Below, piece by piece: positions 819 to 13,172 of a stretch of DNA of 32,000 bases; within the stretch, counting starts at the first letter, position 1, and every line of letters starts with the position of its first letter. The notes under the pieces were generated by a model. That model was not told the DNA's origin. It saw nothing but the letters and a program-made list of their open reading frames with translations, and made no database searches. The stretch is from Candidatus Omnitrophota bacterium (lineage in GTDB: Bacteria > Omnitrophota > Gorgyraeia > Zapsychrales > JANLHA01), in NCBI GenBank assembly GCA_963662715.1, contig OY759724.1, positions 1,770,001 through 1,802,000 on the forward strand, in the 5' to 3' direction. Both the position numbers and the translations under genes were made by a program.

Positions 819-2078
819 ATGAAGATTCCCGGAAAAAAGTTTCTTTTTGACATTCTTACCTTTTGTCTGGTTATAACACTGCTTGAATTGTTTCTTACCA
901 TAGTGTGTTTCTTCTCCCCCATGGTCAACGTGCTTTTAACCATGGATTCCATCTCGCCCAGCGTCCCGGATGAACGCCTCGGGCATCGTCCTAATCCTGC
1001 CCTGCCGGGGCACGACGATAAAGGATTCCGCAACGCCTCAGTGCCGGACGAGGCTAAAATAGTAGCCCTGGGGGATTCGCAGACTTATGGCGACGGTGTC
1101 TTTTGGCAGGATGCCTGGCCCAGCAAGCTGGAAGAATTATCCGGAGACACAGTCTACAGCATGGCCTTCGGGGGCTATGGGCCCGCCCACAGTCTTATCC
1201 TGTGGGAAGAGGCGGCCCTTTTCAACCCGCGGATATATATAGAGGCCTTCTACTCCGGCAATGATTTGTTTGATTCCTTTAACTTGGTTTACAATTTAGG
1301 ACAGCTGCCAGAGTTGAAGACAGCAAATAAAGAAATAGAGTTAGAGATAAGAGAGATGGAAAAGGCGGAATCCGTCGCGCAACATGTTTCGAACCTGTAT
1401 AAAATGGGGAAAAATAAAAAAGGAACCCTGGGGTATTATTTATCCCTGGGCGATGATTTTTTTTCGTCCCATTCGAATATATACGTATTGCTGCGCCGGG
1501 CTAAGCGCGAATTGTTCCGGCTTATTGAATCGGGGAAGACTGAATCGGATTGGGGTAAGGCAAGGACATTTGCCGAAGAGAATTCCGATTACTGTCAGGC
1601 TTTTGAGGACGGGCCGTTTAAGACAATCTTTACACCGGACTACCGGCTTACGGCCCTCGACTTAGAAGACAGGCGGATTGCCGAAGGGTATCGTATTTCC
1701 CTTGAGGCTATAAAGCGTATGAACGAACTTGCTTTGCAGCAGGAAAGACAGTTTTTGGTCGTTCTCATCCCCACGAAAGAATTGGTTTTTAAAGAGCTTA
1801 TACGGAATCCTTCTGAAAAACACCTCGCCCTGATCAGGAATGAGGAGCTGTTATGGAAAAAGGCGAAGGAGTTTTTCCGGGCGCATGACATTGATTTCGT
1901 GGACGGGTTGGCGGCCTTCCGGGAGATGCTCAGCCAGGGCATTCAACCCTACCTGGTGTCGCATGACGGACATCCCAACGAATACGGTCATTACGCTATT
2001 GCGGGATTGATTTATACAAAGCTGCTAAAAAACCGCGGAGATGGCGAGGCTGGCATCCGCGGGTTTCAAGATGAGTGA
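819..2078 (+). CDS. membrane-anchored SGNH/GDSL-family hydrolase (esterase/acyltransferase-like)
   Basis: 419-aa ORF with an N-terminal TM segment (FLFDILTFCLVITLLELFLTIVCFF). SGNH-like blocks are present: ALGDSQTYG (block I GDS), GGYGP (II), YSGNDLFD (III GxND) and HDGHPNEYGH (V-like). Confidence 0.7.
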   Translation: MKIPGKKFLFDILTFCLVITLLELFLTIVCFFSPMVNVLLTMDSISPSVPDERLGHRPNPALPGHDDKGFRNASVPDEAKIVALGDSQTYGDGVFWQDAWPSKLEELSGDTVYSMAFGGYGPAHSLILWEEAALFNPRIYIEAFYSGNDLFDSFNLVYNLGQLPELKTANKEIELEIREMEKAESVAQHVSNLYKMGKNKKGTLGYYLSLGDDFFSSHSNIYVLLRRAKRELFRLIESGKTESDWGKARTFAEENSDYCQAFEDGPFKTIFTPDYRLTALDLEDRRIAEGYRISLEAIKRMNELALQQERQFLVVLIPTKELVFKELIRNPSEKHLALIRNEELLWKKAKEFFRAHDIDFVDGLAAFREMLSQGIQPYLVSHDGHPNEYGHYAIAGLIYTKLLKNRGDGEAGIRGFQDE

Positions 2079-2229
2079 AGGGGATAAAATGAGTTTGGAG
2101 CAAGAGGTGTCTTGGGCAAAGACTGACCGGAGATATCTTTGGGTGGCGGTGATATCCGGAAATTTTCCGTCGTTTGCGGCGGAAGATGCAACGCCGGCGG
2201 ATGTGTCTGTTCTAAAAGCCTAAAAAAGC

Positions 2230-2625
2230 ATGATTTTAACCCGCTGTCTCATATTGCTGCTTATCCTTTCCGGGGGCATGAAATCCGCCAGCGCAAAAGA
2301 AGCCGTCTCCTGTCATAAAGATTATCTCAGGAAAATCACTTTTGATATTAACAAAATCAACGATGACGGTTTGACCGGGCCGCCGGAGGGGTTGGTCTCC
2401 GTAGACTATGAGTTTTGCATACCTGCCGGCAAAGATTATGCTGAAGAAGTCAAGAGGATTGACCCCAGTGCCGTCATCCATGAAAGTTCTTCGGGCAGGA
2501 TAGGCTGCTCCCCGGAAGAATATCTCTGTATCGGAAACACGCACCAAAAAGACTTTAGAGCGGTTTTATGCCGGTTGGCCGGCTTGACGTATGTCCGGCG
2601 CATTGATATGTGCTTCTGGGAATAA
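2230..2625 (+). CDS. exported cysteine-containing hypothetical protein
   Basis: 131-aa ORF with the signal peptide MILTRCLILLLILSGGMKSASA/KE. The mature part contains several Cys residues. No family recognised. Confidence 0.55.
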   Translation: MILTRCLILLLILSGGMKSASAKEAVSCHKDYLRKITFDINKINDDGLTGPPEGLVSVDYEFCIPAGKDYAEEVKRIDPSAVIHESSSGRIGCSPEEYLCIGNTHQKDFRAVLCRLAGLTYVRRIDMCFWE

Positions 2626-2752
2626 GCTTGCCAATCCGTGAGGACGGGCTTTTCGTCGTTCTTATCCTCCCTCTGTGCCCCTTCGGAGCGCTATTTCGTT
2701 TTTAAAAACAAGAATACATTAAGAAATGTCAGTTTTTGGGCGAGTCTGGCCA

Positions 2753-2781
2753 TTGACAGTTCTTTAAGAGAAGACAATAAT
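2753..2781 (+). promoter_or_regulatory. candidate sigma70-type promoter for the HExxH/gasdermin-like gene pair
   Basis: TTGACA (2753-2758), a 17-nt spacer, then AATAAT (2776-2781). It lies about 85 nt upstream of the ATG at 2864, in a 240-nt intergenic gap. Confidence 0.4.
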
Positions 2782-2863
2782 AGCCGTAATGTGCTTTCCC
2801 CGAAACTGAAACCGCCTTTTAATGAATTCTAATGATTTGAAACGTTTCAAGGGAGGAGTATTT

Positions 2864-3904
2864 ATGAATTCATTTGGAAAGATATTTGAAACTTATGAAG
2901 TCCCGGAAAATGTGGGAGGATATCTGGAATGGGTTTCAGGTATTCTTTATATCAATGCATCAAAACAGCAGTGGAAAGAATACCTGAACGTCCAGGCGGG
3001 TGAGACACGTTCAGCCTCTCAACGTGAGTTGTGTCAAACCGTCACCCATGAAACCTATCATTTCCTGCAGATCGCCATGACCGGCTATCTTTACAGGTTT
3101 GCGTGCAGGCTTTTTACAGGTTTCCGGTCACTTTTGTCCCCGCTATTGAGCAGTTCAAAAATAGAGCAGCTGCTCTGCGATCCGCCGCCGCTTCCGCAGA
3201 ATCTTATCGAACTGGTGAGAGCTTTGGACAGCCCTGGCCCGGAGGGGCTGACTGTCCGCGATATCGTGGAATCCTCGGCCTACCTGTACGAACACTTAAT
3301 GCATTATCCGGATATGAACAAATCCTTTTATGACGAAATTTTAGCTTCGTCTCATATCGGCCCGGAGTATAAAAAGGCATATTCTATGGCGGAGGATATC
3401 CTTGGCCCGCATGTCATGGACACATTTCTGACGGCATCTTTTATTTCTCTTTGTTTTGAGCAACCTGCCGGATGTTTTTTAGATGTCCTGAAGGCGATAT
3501 CTGAAGCGGGGCCCGAAGAATTGGCATCAGGCTGTGATTTCAGCCGGATATTTTCGATCACACAGGAAGTCTCCCAAAGGCATAAGCCTTTAGGGCCGTC
3601 CGAAGAAGTCGCGGCAGGGGGGATGTCTCATCCTGTCTATACGCTGTCTTTGGAACTTATGAACGAGTCTTTGGGTCGGGAGCAGGCCATCCTGATGTTG
3701 CTTGCCCCCCGGAGCATGAACTTGTACGGTGCCGTTCTGGCCGTGCGGCCGGCCTTGTTTAAAGACCCCGCCCTTTGGGTCCCTGAAAATTTCAGGCAGA
3801 AAATGCCGGAACAGGATGATGCTAAACTTTTTATTGTCGCTCTTCTGGGGGCTTTTGCCCTCACCCTGCTTAACAAAGGGCAGGACCTTTCAAGATATAG
3901 ATAA
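2864..3904 (+). CDS. uncharacterised HExxH-motif protein (putative zinc metallopeptidase), gasdermin-associated
   Basis: GGGAGGAG SD lies 7 nt before the ATG at 2864; the ORF-track start at 2822 has no SD. A single HETYH motif is encoded at 3047-3061 (H62-H66 of the 346-aa product). There is no signal peptide. A hydrophobic stretch LFIVALLGAFALTLL sits near the C-terminus. No family recognised beyond the motif. Confidence 0.55.
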   Translation: MNSFGKIFETYEVPENVGGYLEWVSGILYINASKQQWKEYLNVQAGETRSASQRELCQTVTHETYHFLQIAMTGYLYRFACRLFTGFRSLLSPLLSSSKIEQLLCDPPPLPQNLIELVRALDSPGPEGLTVRDIVESSAYLYEHLMHYPDMNKSFYDEILASSHIGPEYKKAYSMAEDILGPHVMDTFLTASFISLCFEQPAGCFLDVLKAISEAGPEELASGCDFSRIFSITQEVSQRHKPLGPSEEVAAGGMSHPVYTLSLELMNESLGREQAILMLLAPRSMNLYGAVLAVRPALFKDPALWVPENFRQKMPEQDDAKLFIVALLGAFALTLLNKGQDLSRYR

Positions 3905-3993
3905 ACCGGGCACGAAGAAGTCTGCCCCGCCAGACCGGGGGCTGGCATGAAAAATTTTAACGTTGATGACAAATAAAAACAAAGGAGGGGGAT

Positions 3994-4833
3994 ATGTCAT
4001 TTTTAGGTCTTTGTGATGGGGATCCTTTAGTCACGGTTCTGAAGGATTTGTTCGGCTCAAATATCGTCAAGGTCCCGGAAGAACGCATCAAACCTTTGTG
4101 CGTGGTTGCCAGTTCCGGCCGCCGGACAGCTTTCCGCGGAAAGTTATCCCCTTTGTTGGTCGGTAATCCGGAGTTGAATATTCAGATAAGTTCATCCAGA
4201 ATGGCGGATTTGTCCGGTAAAAGTTCAAGGAAAGTCAACCTTGCTTTAGGGCTGGAAATACTTGAGGGTTTTTTAAAAGGCTTTGGAATCCCGTCTGCCG
4301 GAATAAATTTAAAACTTCAAGGGGCTGAAAAAGTTTCGTTCCATTTTAAGAATGTTGTAAGAGATTTCCTTGATGTCAATGTCCTGGGAAAAATGTTGAG
4401 CGAGCAAATAGTTGATGAAGACAGTCCTGCGGCAAGTATATTTTTCGGAGAAACGGCTTATGCCTTTTTGGTCATTGATTCTGTGATAACCAGCAGTGAT
4501 TTTGCGATAAACCTTGAAAAGGGGCATGATCATAGTTTTAAATTAGATGTCCCGGCCATTCAGACTCTGGTTGCGCAAGCCAATGCCGGGATGGAGGTCA
4601 ACACGACTACGGGCTATGACTTGATATTTAAAGGTCCGGAACAGCTGGCTTTTGCTTTTTCTTGCGTTAAATTGTATTTAGATCAGGCTGGGAGAATTAC
4701 CTCCATGCCGCCGGCCGGTGAGATCCCGACCTTAAGGGTTTATTTCGGGAGAACCAAAGAACATAAAATTGATTATTCTCCGGATAGGGTTCTGTTGAAC
4801 CCTGAGCCAGCCATGCTTGCCTGGGATGAATAA
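3994..4833 (+). CDS. bacterial gasdermin-like (bGSDM) pore-forming protein candidate
   Basis: AAGGAGGGGG SD lies 5 nt before the ATG. The product is 279 aa with no signal peptide or TM helix. The N-terminal ...NIVKVPEERIKPLCVV... segment matches the (V/L)P..I.PL signature I associate with bGSDMs. The central part reads GLEILEGFLKGFG...VSFHFKNVVRDFLD, followed by beta-strand-like alternating segments and a roughly 35-aa C-terminal tail. This is by-eye recognition only; no alignment was run. Confidence 0.55.
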   Translation: MSFLGLCDGDPLVTVLKDLFGSNIVKVPEERIKPLCVVASSGRRTAFRGKLSPLLVGNPELNIQISSSRMADLSGKSSRKVNLALGLEILEGFLKGFGIPSAGINLKLQGAEKVSFHFKNVVRDFLDVNVLGKMLSEQIVDEDSPAASIFFGETAYAFLVIDSVITSSDFAINLEKGHDHSFKLDVPAIQTLVAQANAGMEVNTTTGYDLIFKGPEQLAFAFSCVKLYLDQAGRITSMPPAGEIPTLRVYFGRTKEHKIDYSPDRVLLNPEPAMLAWDE

Positions 4834-4859
4834 ACCCTGTCGGGCATTTTAGCCTTTGT

Positions 4860-4891
4860 CCGGGATATAAGGTCTCCCCGGGATATCCCGG
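4860..4891. promoter_or_regulatory. perfect 14-bp palindrome CCGGGATATCCCGG (4878-4891), with an extra CCGGGATAT half-site at 4860-4868
   Basis: Read directly from the sequence. It lies about 30-60 nt downstream of the gasdermin-like stop codon. Confidence 0.4.
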
Positions 4892-5178
4892 AAACCAGGC
4901 AGACAGCCGTTGGGATCTTCAGGTTCTGCGCGGGTTTTCCGTTATTTTTATGGCCTGAAACATTTTGTCGGCAGCGGAAGGCCCTTATCCGCAGCAAGCC
5001 CTCCGACATTGAATCTTAAATTTACCTCTTACCAGAAGACCTTGTGCAGGGGGAGTTCCCTGAGTTTTTAACGCCCCGGAATATCCTCCGGGGAATAGTG
5101 TTTGTTATTGGTCGGCTTTCTGGTATATTAATTCTGTCTGTTATAAAAAAGGAAAATAAGAAACAAAAGGAGGAAATT

Positions 5179-5586
5179 GTGCCTCTATTAATATGGCAGG
5201 AAGATTTTAGTGTTGATGTTAAGGAGATTGATGAACAGCATAAAAAATGGGTGGGATTTATCAATAGATTATACGATGCCATGATGGAAAAGAAGGCGAA
5301 TAATATTCTGGGAGATCTTTTGAATGATTTTCTTGATTATTCAGGCACGCATTTTAAAACCGAAGAGAATTATTTCGATCAGTTTGGATACGCAGAGGCC
5401 GCCGAACACAAAGAGGCCCACGCCGCCTTTACCCGGAAGGTCCTTGGTTATAAACAGGAAGTCAAGGATAAGAATGTGTTTATTTCCATTGAAGTTTTGA
5501 ATTTTATCAAAGAATGGCTCGTAAAGCATATTTGTCACACGGATCGGAAATATGCCGAATGTTTTCACGAGCATGGTTTGAGATAG
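5179..5586 (+). CDS. bacteriohemerythrin (hemerythrin-like metal-binding protein)
   Basis: AAGGAGG lies 5 nt before the GTG at 5179. The product is 135 aa with hemerythrin ligand motifs: IDEQHKKW, GTHFKTEENYF, AEHKEAHAAF and WLVKHICHTDRKY. Confidence 0.8.
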   Translation: MPLLIWQEDFSVDVKEIDEQHKKWVGFINRLYDAMMEKKANNILGDLLNDFLDYSGTHFKTEENYFDQFGYAEAAEHKEAHAAFTRKVLGYKQEVKDKNVFISIEVLNFIKEWLVKHICHTDRKYAECFHEHGLR

Positions 5587-5688
5587 GTCTTTTAGCACTT
5601 TGCCCTGCGAATCCGGAATCGCGTACGGACTTGACAGCTTTAGCCGTTTTGTGTTTTACCGCCGCCGGGATGGCTTCGGGGAGGAAAG

Positions 5689-5931
5689 ATGAAAAGGATA
5701 TCCATAGATACTTTTGATAAGCTCAGTTTGTTGTTGATCGGATTTGTGTTTGGGTTCAGTTTCGGAGTGGCATTATCTGAATGGCATTGGTTCCCTGTTG
5801 AGGATGAATGGACCCGCATGGCCAATATCCCCCAGACGAAATTGAATTATGTGGCCCTGCTTTCTCCCGGGGTTGCGCTGTTGATGCTTTTATGGCTGCG
5901 CAGAAGATTTTTTGGGGGGAGGCCCATCTGA
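5689..5931 (+). CDS. small two-TM membrane protein, hypothetical
   Basis: GGGGAGGA SD precedes the ATG. The product is 80 aa with two hydrophobic helices (LSLLLIGFVFGFSFGVAL and YVALLSPGVALLMLLWL). Confidence 0.5.
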   Translation: MKRISIDTFDKLSLLLIGFVFGFSFGVALSEWHWFPVEDEWTRMANIPQTKLNYVALLSPGVALLMLLWLRRRFFGGRPI

Positions 5932-6055
5932 TTTCCTGATGCTCCGTCAGGGAAAGCGGAACATGCCCCGCGCGCGAAAGGGCTGGTAAACAGCAAGGGG
6001 GAGGCCAGGATGTCCGGTTATGGATAATTTAAATGATTAAGAAGGGAGTTTTTTT

Positions 6056-6631
6056 ATGCGACATGGTGTCAAAATTCAAGTTGTTTTATTTTCCTTGATC
6101 CTCGGGGCCATGGCTGTTTTTCCGCTGTCTGCCGTGTCTCAGGATAATGAGAAATCTTTGAAGATCAGCGGATTTACTAATAAGAACATTGTTGAAAATG
6201 GTCAACCGAACGGCCCGTTAACCATGGTTTTTGAAAGCCATTCCGGTTCTGCGTTCATTGCCCAAAAAGACATTGCCGCGAGTGCGGAAGGGCAGCCGAT
6301 GTCAGGGACGGTCGCCATCGCTGAACCCGATAAAGAGTCGCAGGAAATTGTTGTCCTTGATCTGGATGCCGGGAAACTGTCCGGGACGAAATACGCTGAT
6401 GTCAAACTGGTCATTCAATCGGACGGCCGAAACGGCAGACCGCTCGTTGGAGAAGGAGCCACCTATATTATAAAAATAAACAAAGAGAAAGTCCGTCTGG
6501 GCGACTACTTTCTGAGTTCGTCAGGGGCAGAACAATGGGTGCGGGTCAAAATGCGCGGCCCGTCCGCACCCCCGGAGGTTGATTCTGATCAGGTCACCGT
6601 AACAAAGCGGGAAGAAACAGAGAATCTCTAA
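6056..6631 (+). CDS. exported hypothetical protein
   Basis: GAAGGGAG SD. The signal peptide reads MRHGVKIQVVLFSLILGAMAVFPLSAVSQ. 191 aa, no family recognised. Confidence 0.6.
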   Translation: MRHGVKIQVVLFSLILGAMAVFPLSAVSQDNEKSLKISGFTNKNIVENGQPNGPLTMVFESHSGSAFIAQKDIAASAEGQPMSGTVAIAEPDKESQEIVVLDLDAGKLSGTKYADVKLVIQSDGRNGRPLVGEGATYIIKINKEKVRLGDYFLSSSGAEQWVRVKMRGPSAPPEVDSDQVTVTKREETENL

Positions 6632-6718
6632 ATAATGCAGGAAAAACAGAAACGATAAATAATGGAGAAGCGGCAGTTGATCCGGGGTCCCGGATGCCGC
6701 TTTTACAAGGAGACTGTT

Positions 6719-7081
6719 ATGGCCAAATTCATTGAGACTCCTTCGGAAATAAAAGCCTGCGGAAACAAAGAAAAAGTCATTAAAGAGTTTATCGGGAACG
6801 TTAACAGCGGGACAGCAACAATAAGTATCGCTAAAATGGACAGCCCCCAGGGGTGGGAAGAGCCGGGGCAGACACCCCAATTCGATGAATATGCAGTTGT
6901 ATTAAAGGGGGTTTTAAAGGCGGAAACGCAAAAGGAATCATTTGACATTAAAGCCGGACAGGCGTTTATTGCAGAAAAAAATGAATGGGTCAGGTACAGC
7001 ACTCCTTATGAAGGAGGGGCGGAATATCTTGCCGTTTGTCTTCCTGCCTTTAGTCCCGGACTGGTTAGTCGAGATAGATGA
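6719..7081 (+). CDS. cupin-fold domain protein
   Basis: AAGGAG lies 7 nt before the ATG at 6719. The sequence MAKFIETPSEIKACGNKEKVIKEFIG...EPGQTPQFDEYAVVLKGVLKAE...WVRYSTPYEGGAEYLAVCLPAFSP matches, from memory, a widespread small cupin-domain family. Confidence 0.6.
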   Translation: MAKFIETPSEIKACGNKEKVIKEFIGNVNSGTATISIAKMDSPQGWEEPGQTPQFDEYAVVLKGVLKAETQKESFDIKAGQAFIAEKNEWVRYSTPYEGGAEYLAVCLPAFSPGLVSRDR

Positions 7082-7197
7082 TAGAAATATCCTGAGGGCC
7101 GGGAAATTTTGATATATAAATAAATTCTGCGCTAATTTGCGCTTTTAACAGCGCAGGGCTGATGCGTTTTTGTGTCAGAATAACGAAGGAGAATTTT

Positions 7198-7890
7198 ATG
7201 AAAAAACAAACGACGCTGATATTGAGTTTGCTGGCGGTCATCTGTTTATTAAACCCGGCCTTTGCGCAAGACCCGGAACAGCCTTTACGGGAAGACGGGG
7301 TTTGCTTGGCCCGGATATTGAAGAGTCCCGGAGCAGTGCTTGTCCGGGAATCCCATGAATTGGACAGGATCGTTCCTGTTAATGGGGAAACTATTAAATC
7401 GGAAATTTTGATCGTCAGGCGTCTCTTGGATCCGTCAACCGAAAACGAGGATTGTTGTGCCGGTCTTGTCTTTGAAATAGAGGAAAAACACCAGATACGC
7501 AGAATTTCTTTGGAAGGGGATGAAATAAATGCCTTTTTGGCGGCATTGGCTCTGTTGGAAAAGGAGGGTGAGAAAATTATGACGTCTCCCAAGCTCACTC
7601 TCCCGGAAGAATTGTCCCATGATATGGAAGTCCATTTTTTAACCAGAGAGGGGCTGATGCTGGGGGTATTTGCGAGCGGAGACTCATGGAAATATGCCGT
7701 AAAGACGTCCGCGGTTTCTGATTGGTCTTTTTTAAATAAAACGGCCATGAAAACTCTTGTTGAAAATTTGAAAGTGGCCAAACAGGTCATAGAGGCCTTG
7801 GGCCCCAAAGATGCCGGTGAGGCTGCCGTCGGGCAACAGGAGCCGGCGCCGGCAGACAGTGGCGGTCTGCCCGAGACAGGGGAAGAATAG
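7198..7890 (+). CDS. exported hypothetical protein
   Basis: GAAGGAGA SD precedes the ATG at 7198. The signal peptide reads MKKQTTLILSLLAVICLLNPAFA/QD. The C-terminus is a low-complexity acidic/Pro tail. Confidence 0.6.
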   Translation: MKKQTTLILSLLAVICLLNPAFAQDPEQPLREDGVCLARILKSPGAVLVRESHELDRIVPVNGETIKSEILIVRRLLDPSTENEDCCAGLVFEIEEKHQIRRISLEGDEINAFLAALALLEKEGEKIMTSPKLTLPEELSHDMEVHFLTREGLMLGVFASGDSWKYAVKTSAVSDWSFLNKTAMKTLVENLKVAKQVIEALGPKDAGEAAVGQQEPAPADSGGLPETGEE

Positions 7891-7994
7891 CGGTTCGCTG
7901 GCTGTGCTTTAAAACTCCGCGCCTCATAATCATCGGAGAAAGTCCGTCCGGGCGGACTGTTCGTATAAGATATCTGTCCGTGGGTGAGGCGTAT

Positions 7995-8030
7995 ATGAAA
8001 GGATTTGCGTCGTTAAAAGAACCTTGGTGA
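7995..8030 (+). promoter_or_regulatory. candidate 11-codon leader ORF (MKGFASLKEPW) translationally coupled to the lspA paralog
   Basis: GAGG lies 5 nt upstream of the ATG at 7995. Its TGA stop (8028-8030) overlaps the TTG (8024) and GTG (8027) candidate starts of the downstream gene, which has no SD of its own. Confidence 0.3.
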
Positions 8031-8494
8031 TATTATTTATTTTGTTTTCCTGCGTAGGCTGCGATCAGCTGACAAAAGCCATTGCCAGACAAAATGTCCC
8101 CAAAACAGGATGTATAAGCCTGGCCAATGATCTGTTCAGGTTTCAGTACGCAGAAAATCCGGGAGCGTTCTTAAGTGTCGGGGCGGATATCCCCGAAACG
8201 TTACGTTTCTCGGTTTTTATCCTTTTGCTGGGAACAGCTCTTCTGGGCATGTTGGTCTATATTTTGAGAACCCGTCATTTTTCTGAAGCACAAGTTATAG
8301 CCCTGGCTTTTATCCTCAGCGGCGGTTTCGGTAACTTGCTCGACCGGATTTATAACGAAGGGCGGGTCATTGATTTTATGAATTGCGGGATCGGCCAGCT
8401 GCGAACGGGCGTTTTTAACGTGGCTGACATGGCCATTACATTTGGTGCTGTTGGTTTCTTTGTCGTTTCCCTCAAGACGCCAAAAGAAGAGTGA
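8024..8494 (+). CDS. lspA: signal peptidase II (lipoprotein signal peptidase), second/paralogous copy
   Basis: LspA motifs are present: CDQLTK, AENPGAF, GGFGNLLDRI, VIDFM and FNVADMAITFGA. The start is non-ATG (TTG 8024 or GTG 8027) and the N-terminus is short. Confidence 0.75.
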   Translation: MVILFILFSCVGCDQLTKAIARQNVPKTGCISLANDLFRFQYAENPGAFLSVGADIPETLRFSVFILLLGTALLGMLVYILRTRHFSEAQVIALAFILSGGFGNLLDRIYNEGRVIDFMNCGIGQLRTGVFNVADMAITFGAVGFFVVSLKTPKEE

Positions 8495-8543
8495 TGTTCC
8501 CTGTCCCGGATCACTACGGCATTTGTCCTTGGAGGAATAATGT

Positions 8544-9098
8544 ATGGAAAAACATATCTGTCCCGTATGGATCGGTTATCTTCTCTTGAGTCCCTTGAGA
8601 AAGCTGTCCCAGAATCCCGAGAAAATTCTGCGGCCGTATATCCGCGAAAACATGACGGTCCTTGATGCCGGGTGCGCCATGGGTTTTTTTAGCCTGCCGG
8701 CAGCCAGAATGGTGGGGGCCGCCGGGAAGGTTGTCTGTGTTGATCTGCAGGAAGGGATGATTAAAGGCCTCAGAAAACGGGCGGCAAAATCCGGCTTGTT
8801 ACCGCGTGTTGAAACCCGTCTGTGCCGGGAAAGTTCCCTGGGGCTTGATGACCTGCAAGAAAAGGTTGACTTCGCTTTTGCTGTCGCCGTAGTGCATGAA
8901 GTTCCAGATGCCGCGGCTTTCTTTTCGGAAATATATTCCGCCTTGAAGCCGGGAGGCCGTTTGTTGATGATCGAACCCAAACGTCACGTCCCGGAAGAAG
9001 AATTCGAAAGAAGCATACAGACCGCTCAGGAGCAGGGTTTTGTTGTCATGGAAAATTCAAGGGCGCGGGAGGGCAGCGTGGCGGTCTTTAAGAAATAG
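8544..9098 (+). CDS. class I SAM-dependent methyltransferase
   Basis: GGAGGA SD. Motif I is VLDAGCAMGFF, the acidic loop is VVCVDLQE, and the post-II region is LKPGGRLLMIE. Confidence 0.75.
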   Translation: MEKHICPVWIGYLLLSPLRKLSQNPEKILRPYIRENMTVLDAGCAMGFFSLPAARMVGAAGKVVCVDLQEGMIKGLRKRAAKSGLLPRVETRLCRESSLGLDDLQEKVDFAFAVAVVHEVPDAAAFFSEIYSALKPGGRLLMIEPKRHVPEEEFERSIQTAQEQGFVVMENSRAREGSVAVFKK

Positions 9099-10911: not shown

Positions 10912-12222
10912 ATGACCAACATGATGAACTCAAGCCGTCCGGCTTCCGGCCGTAATTTGCTGTGTTGTTTTGTCCTCGTCCTGAGCTTGGCCTTGTTCCC
11001 GGGGAATGATGCCGGAGCCATCACAGACGAGGGCGCCGATATTTTTGAACAGTCAAAAAAGAGCGTCTTTCAAATTCGTGTTATTGATTTGGCCAGTGAT
11101 GAAAAATCAACAACGGGGTCAGGGTTTTATATCAGTCCCCAGGGGCATATGATTACAAACTACCATGTCGTTTCAGAATATGTCATGAAACCTGACCGCT
11201 ACAGCATCAAATTTATTAATGAGGACGGGACTTCCGGAGATCTGAGCCTTCTGGGGATTGATGTTATTCATGATTTGGCCATTTTGACCACCGGCCAAGA
11301 GACGGATTTTTTTCTCCGCCTGGGCAATTCCCAAATATTCAAAGGGGAACGTATTTTCAGCATGGGCAACCCGCATGATCTCGGCATGTCTATTATTGAG
11401 GGCACATTCAACGGTTTGATGGAGAAATCCATGTACCGCAAGATTCTTTTTTCCGCGTCTTTGAACCCCGGGATGAGCGGCGGCCCGGCATTAAACCGCA
11501 ACGGGGAGGTTGTCGGGATTAATGTTTCAACGATGGGCAACGATGTCAGTTTTTTAGTGCCGGTGGAATTCTTGACAGCTCTTTATCATGATGTCAAGGC
11601 GCAGGTGGCAAGTCCTGTCGCAGAATGGGAAAGCATTATAGAAAAACAGCTTTTGTCCCAGCAGGACCAGTTTATTGCGGATCTGTTGGCGTCTGAATGG
11701 GAGCATTTGACTCTGGGGGATATGTTCATCCCGGGAGAAATTGCTGTCCCGATCAAGTGCTGGGGGAATTCGATGGACAAGGAAAAAGAATTGATGGTCA
11801 AAGTCCGAACGTCCTGCAGCAGTGAGGACAGCGTATATCTGAATCATGAGGTGTACACGGCTTATTATTCTTTTTGGTTCCTGCATCATACCAGCAAGGG
11901 GATGAACACGTTCCGTTTTTATAATCATCTTGTTGATGATTATGTGGGCGCTTTTTCCTATTATGATGAAGATGATGAGTTTTTCACCAAATTCCAATGC
12001 CGTAATGATTTTGTGAAAATAGCCGGCAGGAATTGGAAGGCGGCTTTATGCGTCAGGAAGTATAAAAAATTCCAGCAGCTTTTTGACCTTAACCTGGTCA
12101 TGAGTACCGTTGATGAATTTGATAATGGTTTGATGGGGGCCTTCGTGGTGAGGGGCGTCGGGAAGAAAGCCGGGCAAGCTTTGATCCGGAGGTTTATGGA
12201 GGAAATACAGTGCCAAAAATAA
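10912..12222 (+). CDS. exported trypsin-like (S1/DegP-type fold) serine protease with an uncharacterised roughly 200-aa C-terminal domain
   Basis: The signal peptide reads LLCCFVLVLSLALFPGNDAGA. The catalytic triad contexts are ITNYHVV (His), DLAIL (Asp) and NPGMSGGPAL (Ser). No PDZ-like sequence recognised in the C-terminal half. Confidence 0.75.
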   Translation: MTNMMNSSRPASGRNLLCCFVLVLSLALFPGNDAGAITDEGADIFEQSKKSVFQIRVIDLASDEKSTTGSGFYISPQGHMITNYHVVSEYVMKPDRYSIKFINEDGTSGDLSLLGIDVIHDLAILTTGQETDFFLRLGNSQIFKGERIFSMGNPHDLGMSIIEGTFNGLMEKSMYRKILFSASLNPGMSGGPALNRNGEVVGINVSTMGNDVSFLVPVEFLTALYHDVKAQVASPVAEWESIIEKQLLSQQDQFIADLLASEWEHLTLGDMFIPGEIAVPIKCWGNSMDKEKELMVKVRTSCSSEDSVYLNHEVYTAYYSFWFLHHTSKGMNTFRFYNHLVDDYVGAFSYYDEDDEFFTKFQCRNDFVKIAGRNWKAALCVRKYKKFQQLFDLNLVMSTVDEFDNGLMGAFVVRGVGKKAGQALIRRFMEEIQCQK

Positions 12223-13172
12223 TTGTCGAAATCACCCCGGATTCCAAGTCTGTGAGAGAATATAAGGTTTTTGACTCCGAAGAAGTGTGTGTCGGCAGGG
12301 GCTTTGATTGTGACGTTATCCTTCAGGATGTTTATGTCGCGGCACGACATCTGCTCATCACCCGTACCGGGGACAGCATCAAAGTCAAAGACCTTGGTTC
12401 CGAGAACGGGACGTTTCTGCCCCCAGCAGAGCGGGTTAATCCCGAGGCCACGCTTTTATCAGGGGATGAGGTGACTTTGGGGAAAACCAGGCTGCGGATT
12501 TATCTTGACTCCCATCCTGTCCCGGCTGCCCGTATCTTATATGAACGTCATAAATTTTTAAAGCTCGCAGGAAAACCTCTGGTGGCTTGGGGCTGGGTGG
12601 GGGTCATGATGGGCTTTACCTTGCTGGAAGTGTATTGCCACACAACGAAAAATGAGGATTTTATTAAACTGCTTTCCACCCCGATTGTGGTCTTCTGCAC
12701 GATTTTGCTGTGGGGAGGGTTTTGGGCTTTTATCGGGCGATTGCTTCGGCATAAAGTTTATTTTTATGAACACCTTTCGGTGTGTTGCGCCTGGCTTTTT
12801 TCCAGCGCGGTGCTGGAAAATATCATTGACTATATGAGTTTCTATGCCAACAGCAAGTTGCTGAACACGATTTGCGCTTATATCCTCAACAGCGGGCTTT
12901 TTATCATCACATTGTTTGCGAGTTTGACGTTCTCGACGAATATGAGCAGAGCGAAGAAGATCACGTTTGCCAGTATTTTTACTTTTGTCCTGGTTGCCTC
13001 TTTTGCCGGCCTGAAGTTGTCGGCTTCAAAGTATTATACATGGGCGCCCCCCTACGATACGATCCTTAAACCGCCTGTTTTAGGGTCCCGGAACGGACGC
13101 CCCATTGAAGAGTTCATTGAGAATACAGATCCTTTGTTTATATTTAAGGAAGAAGAAAAAACCGTTAAATAA
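12210..13172 (+). CDS. FHA-domain protein with a multi-pass membrane C-terminal region
   Basis: The GTG start at 12210 is preceded by GGAGGA and overlaps the protease stop by 13 nt. The FHA signature reads VCVGRGFDCDVILQDVYVAARHLLI...VKDLGSENGTFL. About 5-6 hydrophobic helices follow. Confidence 0.75.
   Translation: MPKIIVEITPDSKSVREYKVFDSEEVCVGRGFDCDVILQDVYVAARHLLITRTGDSIKVKDLGSENGTFLPPAERVNPEATLLSGDEVTLGKTRLRIYLDSHPVPAARILYERHKFLKLAGKPLVAWGWVGVMMGFTLLEVYCHTTKNEDFIKLLSTPIVVFCTILLWGGFWAFIGRLLRHKVYFYEHLSVCCAWLFSSAVLENIIDYMSFYANSKLLNTICAYILNSGLFIITLFASLTFSTNMSRAKKITFASIFTFVLVASFAGLKLSASKYYTWAPPYDTILKPPVLGSRNGRPIEEFIENTDPLFIFKEEEKTVK

Follow-up and report, generated by a model that had tools for sequence, protein, structure and literature searches.

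Within a 32,000-nucleotide stretch of contig OY759724.1 from a Candidatus Omnitrophota bacterium (hereafter, the window), a gene for a bacterial gasdermin (bGSDM) of 279 amino acids (aa) directly follows a gene for a 346-aa protein, which carries an HExxH motif and belongs to an unannotated family. We propose that the pair constitutes a protease-swapped two-gene gasdermin cell-death module, in which the HExxH protein would cut a linker in the gasdermin to free the pore former, and we put the probability of this reading at roughly 45%. As an instance of a gasdermin system with an exchanged protease, the pair is plausible, with a single genomic occurrence behind it. We favor this reading because proteases are commonly found next to gasdermins, the two genes are arranged like an operon, the catalytic-type residues of the 346-aa protein are invariant, a related gasdermin elsewhere is preceded by a different HExxH protein, and relatives of the 346-aa protein occur in conflict-type contexts. 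The locus would add a new candidate protease family to the known gasdermin-protease modules and is not a categorically new system.

The downstream gene encodes a complete bacterial gasdermin

The 279-aa protein matched the bGSDM profile of PADLOC over residues 6 to 244 (E = 3.9e-66), the NCBIfam model prok_gasdermin NF051890 with 192.1 bits (cutoff 100), and the Vitiosangium bGSDM (7n51/8sl0) in PDB (E = 1.8e-27). By the agreement of these three independent libraries, the product of this gene is a bona fide and complete bacterial gasdermin, as a preliminary description of the window had supposed. Seventy homologs of the protein contain PF26164 (Bact_GSDM). Instead of a large C-terminal domain, the window gasdermin has a short C-terminal tail, and the profile match stops near residue 244. 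An alignment of 25 members of the gasdermin clade showed a conserved ITSMPP, followed by a variable linker and then by a conserved YSPDRVLL..P..L.WD motif. Because of the analogy with the systems of Johnson et al., we place the activating cleavage in this tail, which is likely to serve as the autoinhibitory peptide as well. Cys7 was invariant across the same alignment and aligns with the N-terminal Cys of the Vitiosangium bGSDM, the position at which palmitoylation has been described for bGSDMs (Johnson et al.); by analogy, the window gasdermin is probably lipid modified.

The two genes are arranged like an operon

The HExxH gene and the gasdermin gene lie on the same strand, 89 nucleotides (nt) apart, and each is preceded by a strong ribosome-binding site, namely AGGGAGGAG at 2850-2858 before the HExxH gene and AAAGGAGGGGG at 3981-3991, inside the spacer, before the gasdermin gene (Table 1). 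The full open reading frame (ORF) of the upstream gene spans 2822-3904, and the ATG at 2864 agrees with the N termini of the homologs. This arrangement had been noted in the preliminary description together with a promoter candidate upstream of the pair, and both were confirmed on inspection. The candidate scored 11/12 and was the top sigma-70-like site within 2000-5800, a region in which the total number of such sites was no higher than in shuffled sequence. We found no terminator-like site in 3905-3993, and the fold of this spacer was no more stable than that of its shuffles (z = −0.39). The upstream promoter-like site, the lack of a terminator, and the shuffle-like folding of the spacer make it likely that a single transcript, driven by the site at 2753, covers both genes. 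A 10-base pair perfect hairpin at 4859-4892 (CCGGGATAT...ATATCCCGG region) is located 26 nt past the gasdermin stop; with no T-run behind it, the hairpin falls short of a canonical intrinsic terminator.

Table 1. Coordinates of the two-gene module in the window and of the comparison loci. Positions of comparison loci refer to their own contigs.
Feature or locus	Position	Strand	Basis or description
Sigma-70-like promoter candidate TTGACA-17-AATAAT	2753..2781	+	Consensus match only; putative function
HExxH-family gene, 346 aa, putative zinc metallohydrolase/peptidase	2864..3904	+	ORF and ribosome-binding site
HETYH motif (H62, E63, H66; residues 62-66)	3047..3061	+	Invariant in 99 aligned homologs
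E136, candidate third metal ligand	3269..3271	+	At least 90% conserved; helix 131-147; putative ligand
Y169, invariant tyrosine	3368..3370	+	99 sequences; putative catalytic-type residue
Intergenic spacer, 89 nt, with AAAGGAGGGGG	3905..3993	+	Between the HExxH gene and the gasdermin gene
bGSDM gene, 279 aa	3994..4833	+	ORF; PADLOC, NCBIfam, and PDB matches
Cys7 of the gasdermin	4012..4014	+	Aligned with the N-terminal Cys of Vitiosangium bGSDM 7n51
C-terminal tail of the gasdermin, about residues 237-279	4702..4830	+	Variable linker, then conserved YSPDRVLL..P..L.WD(E)
L001 (= L013)	4413-9056		Alpha/beta-hydrolase-like (412 aa), Peptidase_C14 (377 aa), Y4kD_C (400 aa), and HExxH gene; four overlapping genes
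X-domain gene beside the L001 operon, 214 aa	3726-4370	−	Divergent
L049	4431-9042		Same four-gene operon as L001, 46-66% identity; diverged metagenomic contig
L047	8001-9053		Distant family member (22% identity) in a six-gene cluster without assigned families
L011	7135-11077		HExxH gene directly after a 301-aa Ser/Thr kinase and a group II intron reverse transcriptase/maturase; Pseudomonadota metagenome-assembled genome
L002 (= L003)			HExxH gene with small neighboring proteins, no family assigned
L004, X-domain gene, 221 aa	1088-1753	+	Directly downstream of the HExxH gene
L005 (= L006)			HExxH gene with small neighboring proteins without assigned family and a TPR protein
L012, X-domain gene, 161 aa	1876-2361	+	Directly downstream of the HExxH gene
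CHAT-operon loci L023-L033, L039, L044, L046	e.g., L024 3308-8876		CHAT protease, Amidase_2, FtsZ/tubulin-like, and gasdermin genes

The upstream gene encodes a member of a conserved HExxH family

Of the 32 window ORFs checked, only that of the 346-aa protein contains an HExxH, in the form of HETYH. The preliminary description took this motif for the only recognizable feature of the protein, which matched nothing in Pfam, PADLOC, NCBIfam, or, by sequence, PDB. A word-indexed search with the protein identified 11 relatives. When 1.84 billion cluster representatives were searched by profile, the family grew to 378 clusters at E ≤ 0.001, including 116 at E ≤ 1e-30, and a further protein search with a broad family alignment contributed two more usable proteins. 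Scanning a genome collection with the family alignment gave only 3 loci; nothing was found in viral collection scans with the family and gasdermin alignments or by tblastn against plasmids with four members of the family.

Every full-length representative of the family has the HExxH motif. Across 99 aligned members, with identity down to ~19%, H62, E63, H66, Y169, L196, and P201 were invariant, and W23, G26, Q69, and E136 were at least 90% conserved. An AlphaFold2 model of the 346-aa protein based on 11 sequences reached a predicted local distance difference test (pLDDT) score of 69, and a second one based on the 99 sequences reached a pLDDT of 94.3 and a predicted template modeling score of 0.93. 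The model contains an N-terminal β-hairpin (residues 19-30), a long helix that bears the HExxH motif (residues 51-72), and a helix with E136 (residues 131-147). Judged by this conservation and by the model, the family is real, folded, and strongly constrained at a metalloprotease-type motif, and it is placed outside the described peptidase families. Together, HExxH, E136, and Y169 would constitute a gluzincin-like signature. A Glu ~70 residues downstream of the motif on a separate helix and an invariant Tyr resemble the spacing that we take to be typical of gluzincins, from what is known of M48. No signal peptide was found in the 346-aa protein. An apparent C-terminal membrane helix (residues 318-336) was rejected, as its hydrophobicity is not kept in the family.

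In the mechanism that we propose, the gasdermin would be synthesized in an autoinhibited and probably lipid-modified form, kept inactive by its C-terminal tail of ~35 to 40 residues. The 346-aa protein would be a cytoplasmic zinc-dependent hydrolase, with HExxH, E136, and Y169 as its catalytic center. Upon some trigger, this enzyme would cleave the gasdermin within the variable linker that precedes the conserved YSPDRVLL tail, and the freed gasdermin would oligomerize into membrane pores and cause cell death, possibly in defense. Beside related gasdermins, the slot of the HExxH gene is held by CHAT, caspase-like, subtilase, or Lit/U49-type proteases, and the protease swap would consist in its takeover by a new HExxH family. 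Free recombination is known for protease-effector modules (PMC12642450) and favors this reading.

Proteases and other HExxH proteins are found beside related gasdermins

An adjacent protease was reported for 43 of 50 bacterial gasdermins (Johnson et al.), and thus an enzyme with a protease-type motif is the default expectation for the neighbor of a gasdermin. Experimentally reconstituted bGSDM-protease pairs that we found described in the literature all involve caspase-like/CHAT proteases, and the surveys tabulate trypsin-like, subtilase, C1-like, and U49 proteins as other partners. Peptidase U49 stands beside six of the 50 gasdermins, in Ideonella, Streptomyces fulvoviolaceus, Rhodoplanes, Mesorhizobium, Geodermatophilus, and Sinorhizobium, and seven have no protease (Johnson et al., Table S1); a bGSDM-U49 operon type is drawn as well (Johnson & Kranzusch 2022, Fig 2). 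Lit belongs to U49; its sequence has HEISH, and it bears the RefSeq name "cell death peptidase Lit." It is a zinc protease that remains latent until a trigger arrives in the course of phage infection, and its substrate is EF-Tu and not a pore former. Since U49/Lit proteins with HExxH lie beside gasdermins, a metallopeptidase-type gasdermin neighbor had already been recorded in the 2021/2022 surveys. The preliminary description therefore overstated the novelty of a metallopeptidase-linked gasdermin. The literature searched yielded neither a functional test of a U49-gasdermin pair nor a description of the HExxH family of the window.

We then compared the window with 35 other gasdermin loci, of which 3 belong to close homologs (57-63% identity) and 32 are metagenomic and represent the same clade. 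In 13 metagenomic loci, genes for a CHAT protease, an Amidase_2 protein, an FtsZ/tubulin-like protein, and the gasdermin form an operon with overlapping stop and start codons, a type that has been drawn before (Johnson & Kranzusch 2022, Fig 2). S8 subtilases were found beside the gasdermins of L017, L019, and L022, and a C14 caspase-like multidomain protein beside that of L045, while several loci of the clade had no recognizable protease.

An informative analog of the window arrangement was found at L008 (7706-10846), where a PP2C phosphatase gene precedes a gene for a 395-aa HExxH protein, and a gasdermin with 57% identity to that of the window is encoded 5 nt further on. The 395-aa protein (HEYGHIIKGH...QEIEAD) shows the pattern HExxHxxxxH...ExEAD...HP....R that is common to E. 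coli Lit and a Pfam-assigned U49 protein, and it scored 19.7 bits against Pfam M48, just under the threshold of 20.3. As the upstream genes of the window and of L008 differ, the slot before this gasdermin lineage is filled by different HExxH proteins from one genome to another. Separately, a partial ORF with HEVAH was seen on two contigs (L042 1-852 and L041 1-504), where it ends 29 nt before the gene of a distant gasdermin (33% identity). This ORF had no Pfam or PDB match and may be another HExxH neighbor of a gasdermin.

Relatives of the HExxH protein occur in conflict-type contexts and with an X domain

Next, we examined the DNA around eight other distinct loci of the HExxH family (Table 1). 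Members of the family were found in conflict-type contexts, including a caspase operon (L001 and L049), a restriction/U49 locus (L047), and a fusion to TPR repeats in one protein. The hydrolase assignment in the L001 operon comes from sub-threshold Pfam matches only. At L049, the last two genes of the operon are each split in two, which may represent frameshifts or decay. The cluster at L047 adjoins a Peptidase_U49 gene and the type I restriction-modification genes HsdR, HsdM, and HsdS, and it resembles a defense island.

A C-terminal extension of ~180 aa, which we call the X domain, is present in 26 of the 157 representatives of the HExxH family (e.g., P0102, P0104, and P0111). It also occurs as a separate gene downstream of the HExxH gene at L004 and L012, and a divergent X gene lies beside the L001 operon. 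The domain measures about 160 to 220 aa, and its consensus includes L.FP..........DP.VRRF.R.L....P.L.YFL; a PDB sequence search with it detected no relative. This fused-or-adjacent pattern implies that the HExxH family normally works with an X domain.

These contexts could also indicate that the HExxH protein is an accessory sensor or regulator, which processes or restrains another component or degrades the activated effector and would modulate the gasdermin only indirectly. At both L001 and L049, the family member is the last gene of an operon that already encodes a caspase-like protease and a hydrolase-like candidate effector, and thus it is not needed there as the effector-cleaving protease. 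Moreover, the TPR and X-domain fusions look like regulatory or sensing add-ons, and protease-effector pairs, including caspase with α/β-hydrolase, are modular and recombine with many different sensors (Evans et al., bioRxiv 2025, PMC12642450). Beside the window gasdermin, however, there is no other protease for a regulator to act on, and the invariant catalytic-type residues favor an enzyme over a scaffold. We regard an accessory role as improbable. On a broader scale, the family could represent a new zinc-peptidase clan in prokaryotic death and conflict systems, of which the window member would be the sole gasdermin activator, and the first case of a gasdermin gated by a metallopeptidase of new fold, with X as a regulator or an alternative substrate. 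This wider proposal appears possible, if doubtful.

Evidence weighing on the proposed enzyme-substrate relation

Several results weigh against the HExxH protein being the activating protease of the gasdermin. The recurrent partner of the HExxH family is the X domain and not a gasdermin. The preliminary description had stated beforehand that a lack of linkage between the family and gasdermins elsewhere would refute it, and we observed no such linkage. A hidden Markov model (HMM) of 70 gasdermin homologs detected a gasdermin at none of the eight other family loci with their available flanks, and an HMM of the HExxH family detected a member at none of the 35 other gasdermin-clade loci; many of the contigs are short, which makes both sets a limited sample. 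There were no gasdermin-HExxH fusions among the proteins collected. The closest HExxH homolog (P0002, 53%) comes from a 4.8-kb contig that carries no gasdermin, and the closest gasdermin homolog (P0013, 63%) is solitary. In addition, the pair sits in housekeeping DNA and not in a defense island or mobile element. Because the pairing was found nowhere else, the assignment of the HExxH protein as the activating protease remains a lead.

The same list includes negative results on the protein itself. The 346-aa protein had no match in Pfam (peptidase profiles up to E = 1), PADLOC, or NCBIfam, and PDB sequence searches with either the single protein or the 99-sequence profile found no relative; vinculin matches returned by these searches were confined to extension columns and were rejected as spurious. 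A Foldseek comparison, which the preliminary description had foreseen, detected no zincin or other structural neighbor of either AlphaFold2 model in PDB and BFVD (best scores with the good model, E = 0.59 and 0.16, respectively, at template modeling scores < 0.2). By hhalign, no similarity was seen to Lit, to the 395-aa protein of L008, or to a three-sequence U49-like alignment, with a probability of 0.3% for U49. The protein reads HETYHFLQIAM and has neither the HExxHxxxxH of U49 nor ExEAD, and it gave no Pfam U49 match at E up to 1. A small zincin core within a larger helical protein could go undetected in the Foldseek, Pfam, PDB-profile, and hhalign comparisons alike. Of the metallopeptidase-gated module as first described, there remain a real gasdermin, which PADLOC detects and which lacks a canonical protease among its nearest several genes, and a tightly linked partner with an invariant HExxH motif, which PADLOC does not match and for which neither profiles nor structures gave a peptidase relative.

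The genomic results would be expected if the two genes were adjacent without an enzyme-substrate relation, that is, if a solitary gasdermin were activated from elsewhere or never, the HExxH gene served an X-domain partner, and the two shared only a transcript. There are precedents, as the 7 of 50 gasdermins without a nearby protease and the gasdermin of L007 (59%), which has no recognizable protease nearby, illustrate. A candidate activator from elsewhere is a trypsin-like serine protease encoded in the same window at 10912-12222 (Trypsin_2, GMSGGP), which the preliminary description does not mention. It is the only protease of a recognized class in the vicinity, with no C14, CHAT, S8, trypsin-like, or U49 protein adjacent to the gasdermin. 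However, its gene is located 6 kb downstream and at least eight genes away, and the protein is probably not cytoplasmic because it has a signal-peptide-like N terminus; it is thus unlikely to be the activator. Coincidence is also hard to reconcile with the tight co-oriented layout, in which one promoter-like site precedes the pair and no terminator divides it, and with the only HExxH among the 32 ORFs adjoining the gasdermin. Furthermore, we found no X domain in the six frames of the 32-kb window. On balance, we consider mere adjacency rather unlikely.

The negative results on the protein fit a further explanation, in which the HExxH family is a non-peptidase metal-dependent hydrolase, or uses HExxH for another function, and its link to the gasdermin is metabolic or coincidental. 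A confident model (pLDDT 94) without a zincin or other structural neighbor and the lack of any peptidase profile match at E up to 1 point in this direction. HExxH zincin-like proteins with non-peptidase activities exist, for example, those of the DUF45/YgjP type. Against this stand the combination of HExxH, the Glu ~70 residues on, and the Tyr, which resembles gluzincin spacing, and the recurrence of the family beside proteolysis-based death modules. A non-peptidase function is, in our estimate, very improbable.

Surroundings of the module

The genes flanking the pair encode an SGNH/GDSL-like protein, a 131-aa protein with a signal-like N terminus, a hemerythrin, a cupin, and proteins without matches. 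These assignments agree with the earlier view that the flanking genes are unrelated to the pair, and the reported lack of an NLR, ATPase, or repeat sensor was likewise confirmed within about five genes. Most of the window has housekeeping content, with MreB, an IleS-type tRNA synthetase, EPSP synthase, Lgt, signal peptidase II, and P5C reductase, and neither GC content nor composition showed a step at the two-gene module. The trypsin-like gene overlaps an FHA-domain gene by 13 nt, and this region (10912-13172) explains the PADLOC "RT-Protease_XI" matches. One window ORF matched PADLOC mad2 at 2e-24, and others weakly matched LmuA, LmuB, and JetC (1e-5 to 1e-3), which probably reflects generic methyltransferase or ATPase similarity. 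Two window ORFs matched signal peptidase II (Peptidase_A8), one of them probably at 8024-8494.

Significance and comparison with known systems

If the HExxH protein does activate the gasdermin, a metallopeptidase-activated gasdermin with an enzyme of undescribed fold would add to the range of known activators, and the compact two-gene system would be easy to reconstitute. The HExxH family and the X domain form an uncharacterized pair, homologs of which lie beside caspase-type death modules and restriction systems, and a function for this pair would annotate several hundred orphan protein clusters.

Among known systems, Lit of E. coli e14 resembles the window protein as a stand-alone HExxH protein, but the two show no detectable homology. 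The caspase/α/β-hydrolase modules (PMC12642450) are related through homologs of the window protein, which on two contigs share an overlapping operon with caspase-like and weakly hydrolase-like proteins. These operons have their own protease and no gasdermin, whereas the window has neither a caspase-like nor a hydrolase-like gene. The Runella CHAT and Lysobacter trypsin-like/NACHT systems (Johnson et al. 2022) share with the window the N-terminal Cys and the short inhibitory C-terminal peptide of the gasdermin, and the expected logic would be the same, with tail cleavage freeing the pore former. The window differs from them in its distinct and unannotated protease class, the lack of a repeat/NTPase sensor, its housekeeping context, and a pairing that is not conserved. 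Last, the bGSDM-U49 operons, which include the L008 locus, where 5 nt separate the U49-like gene from the gasdermin, differ from the window in that the 346-aa protein is not a U49 peptidase by motif, Pfam, or hhalign. In their architecture they are the same, with a gasdermin directly beside a single small HExxH protein that has no fused sensor.

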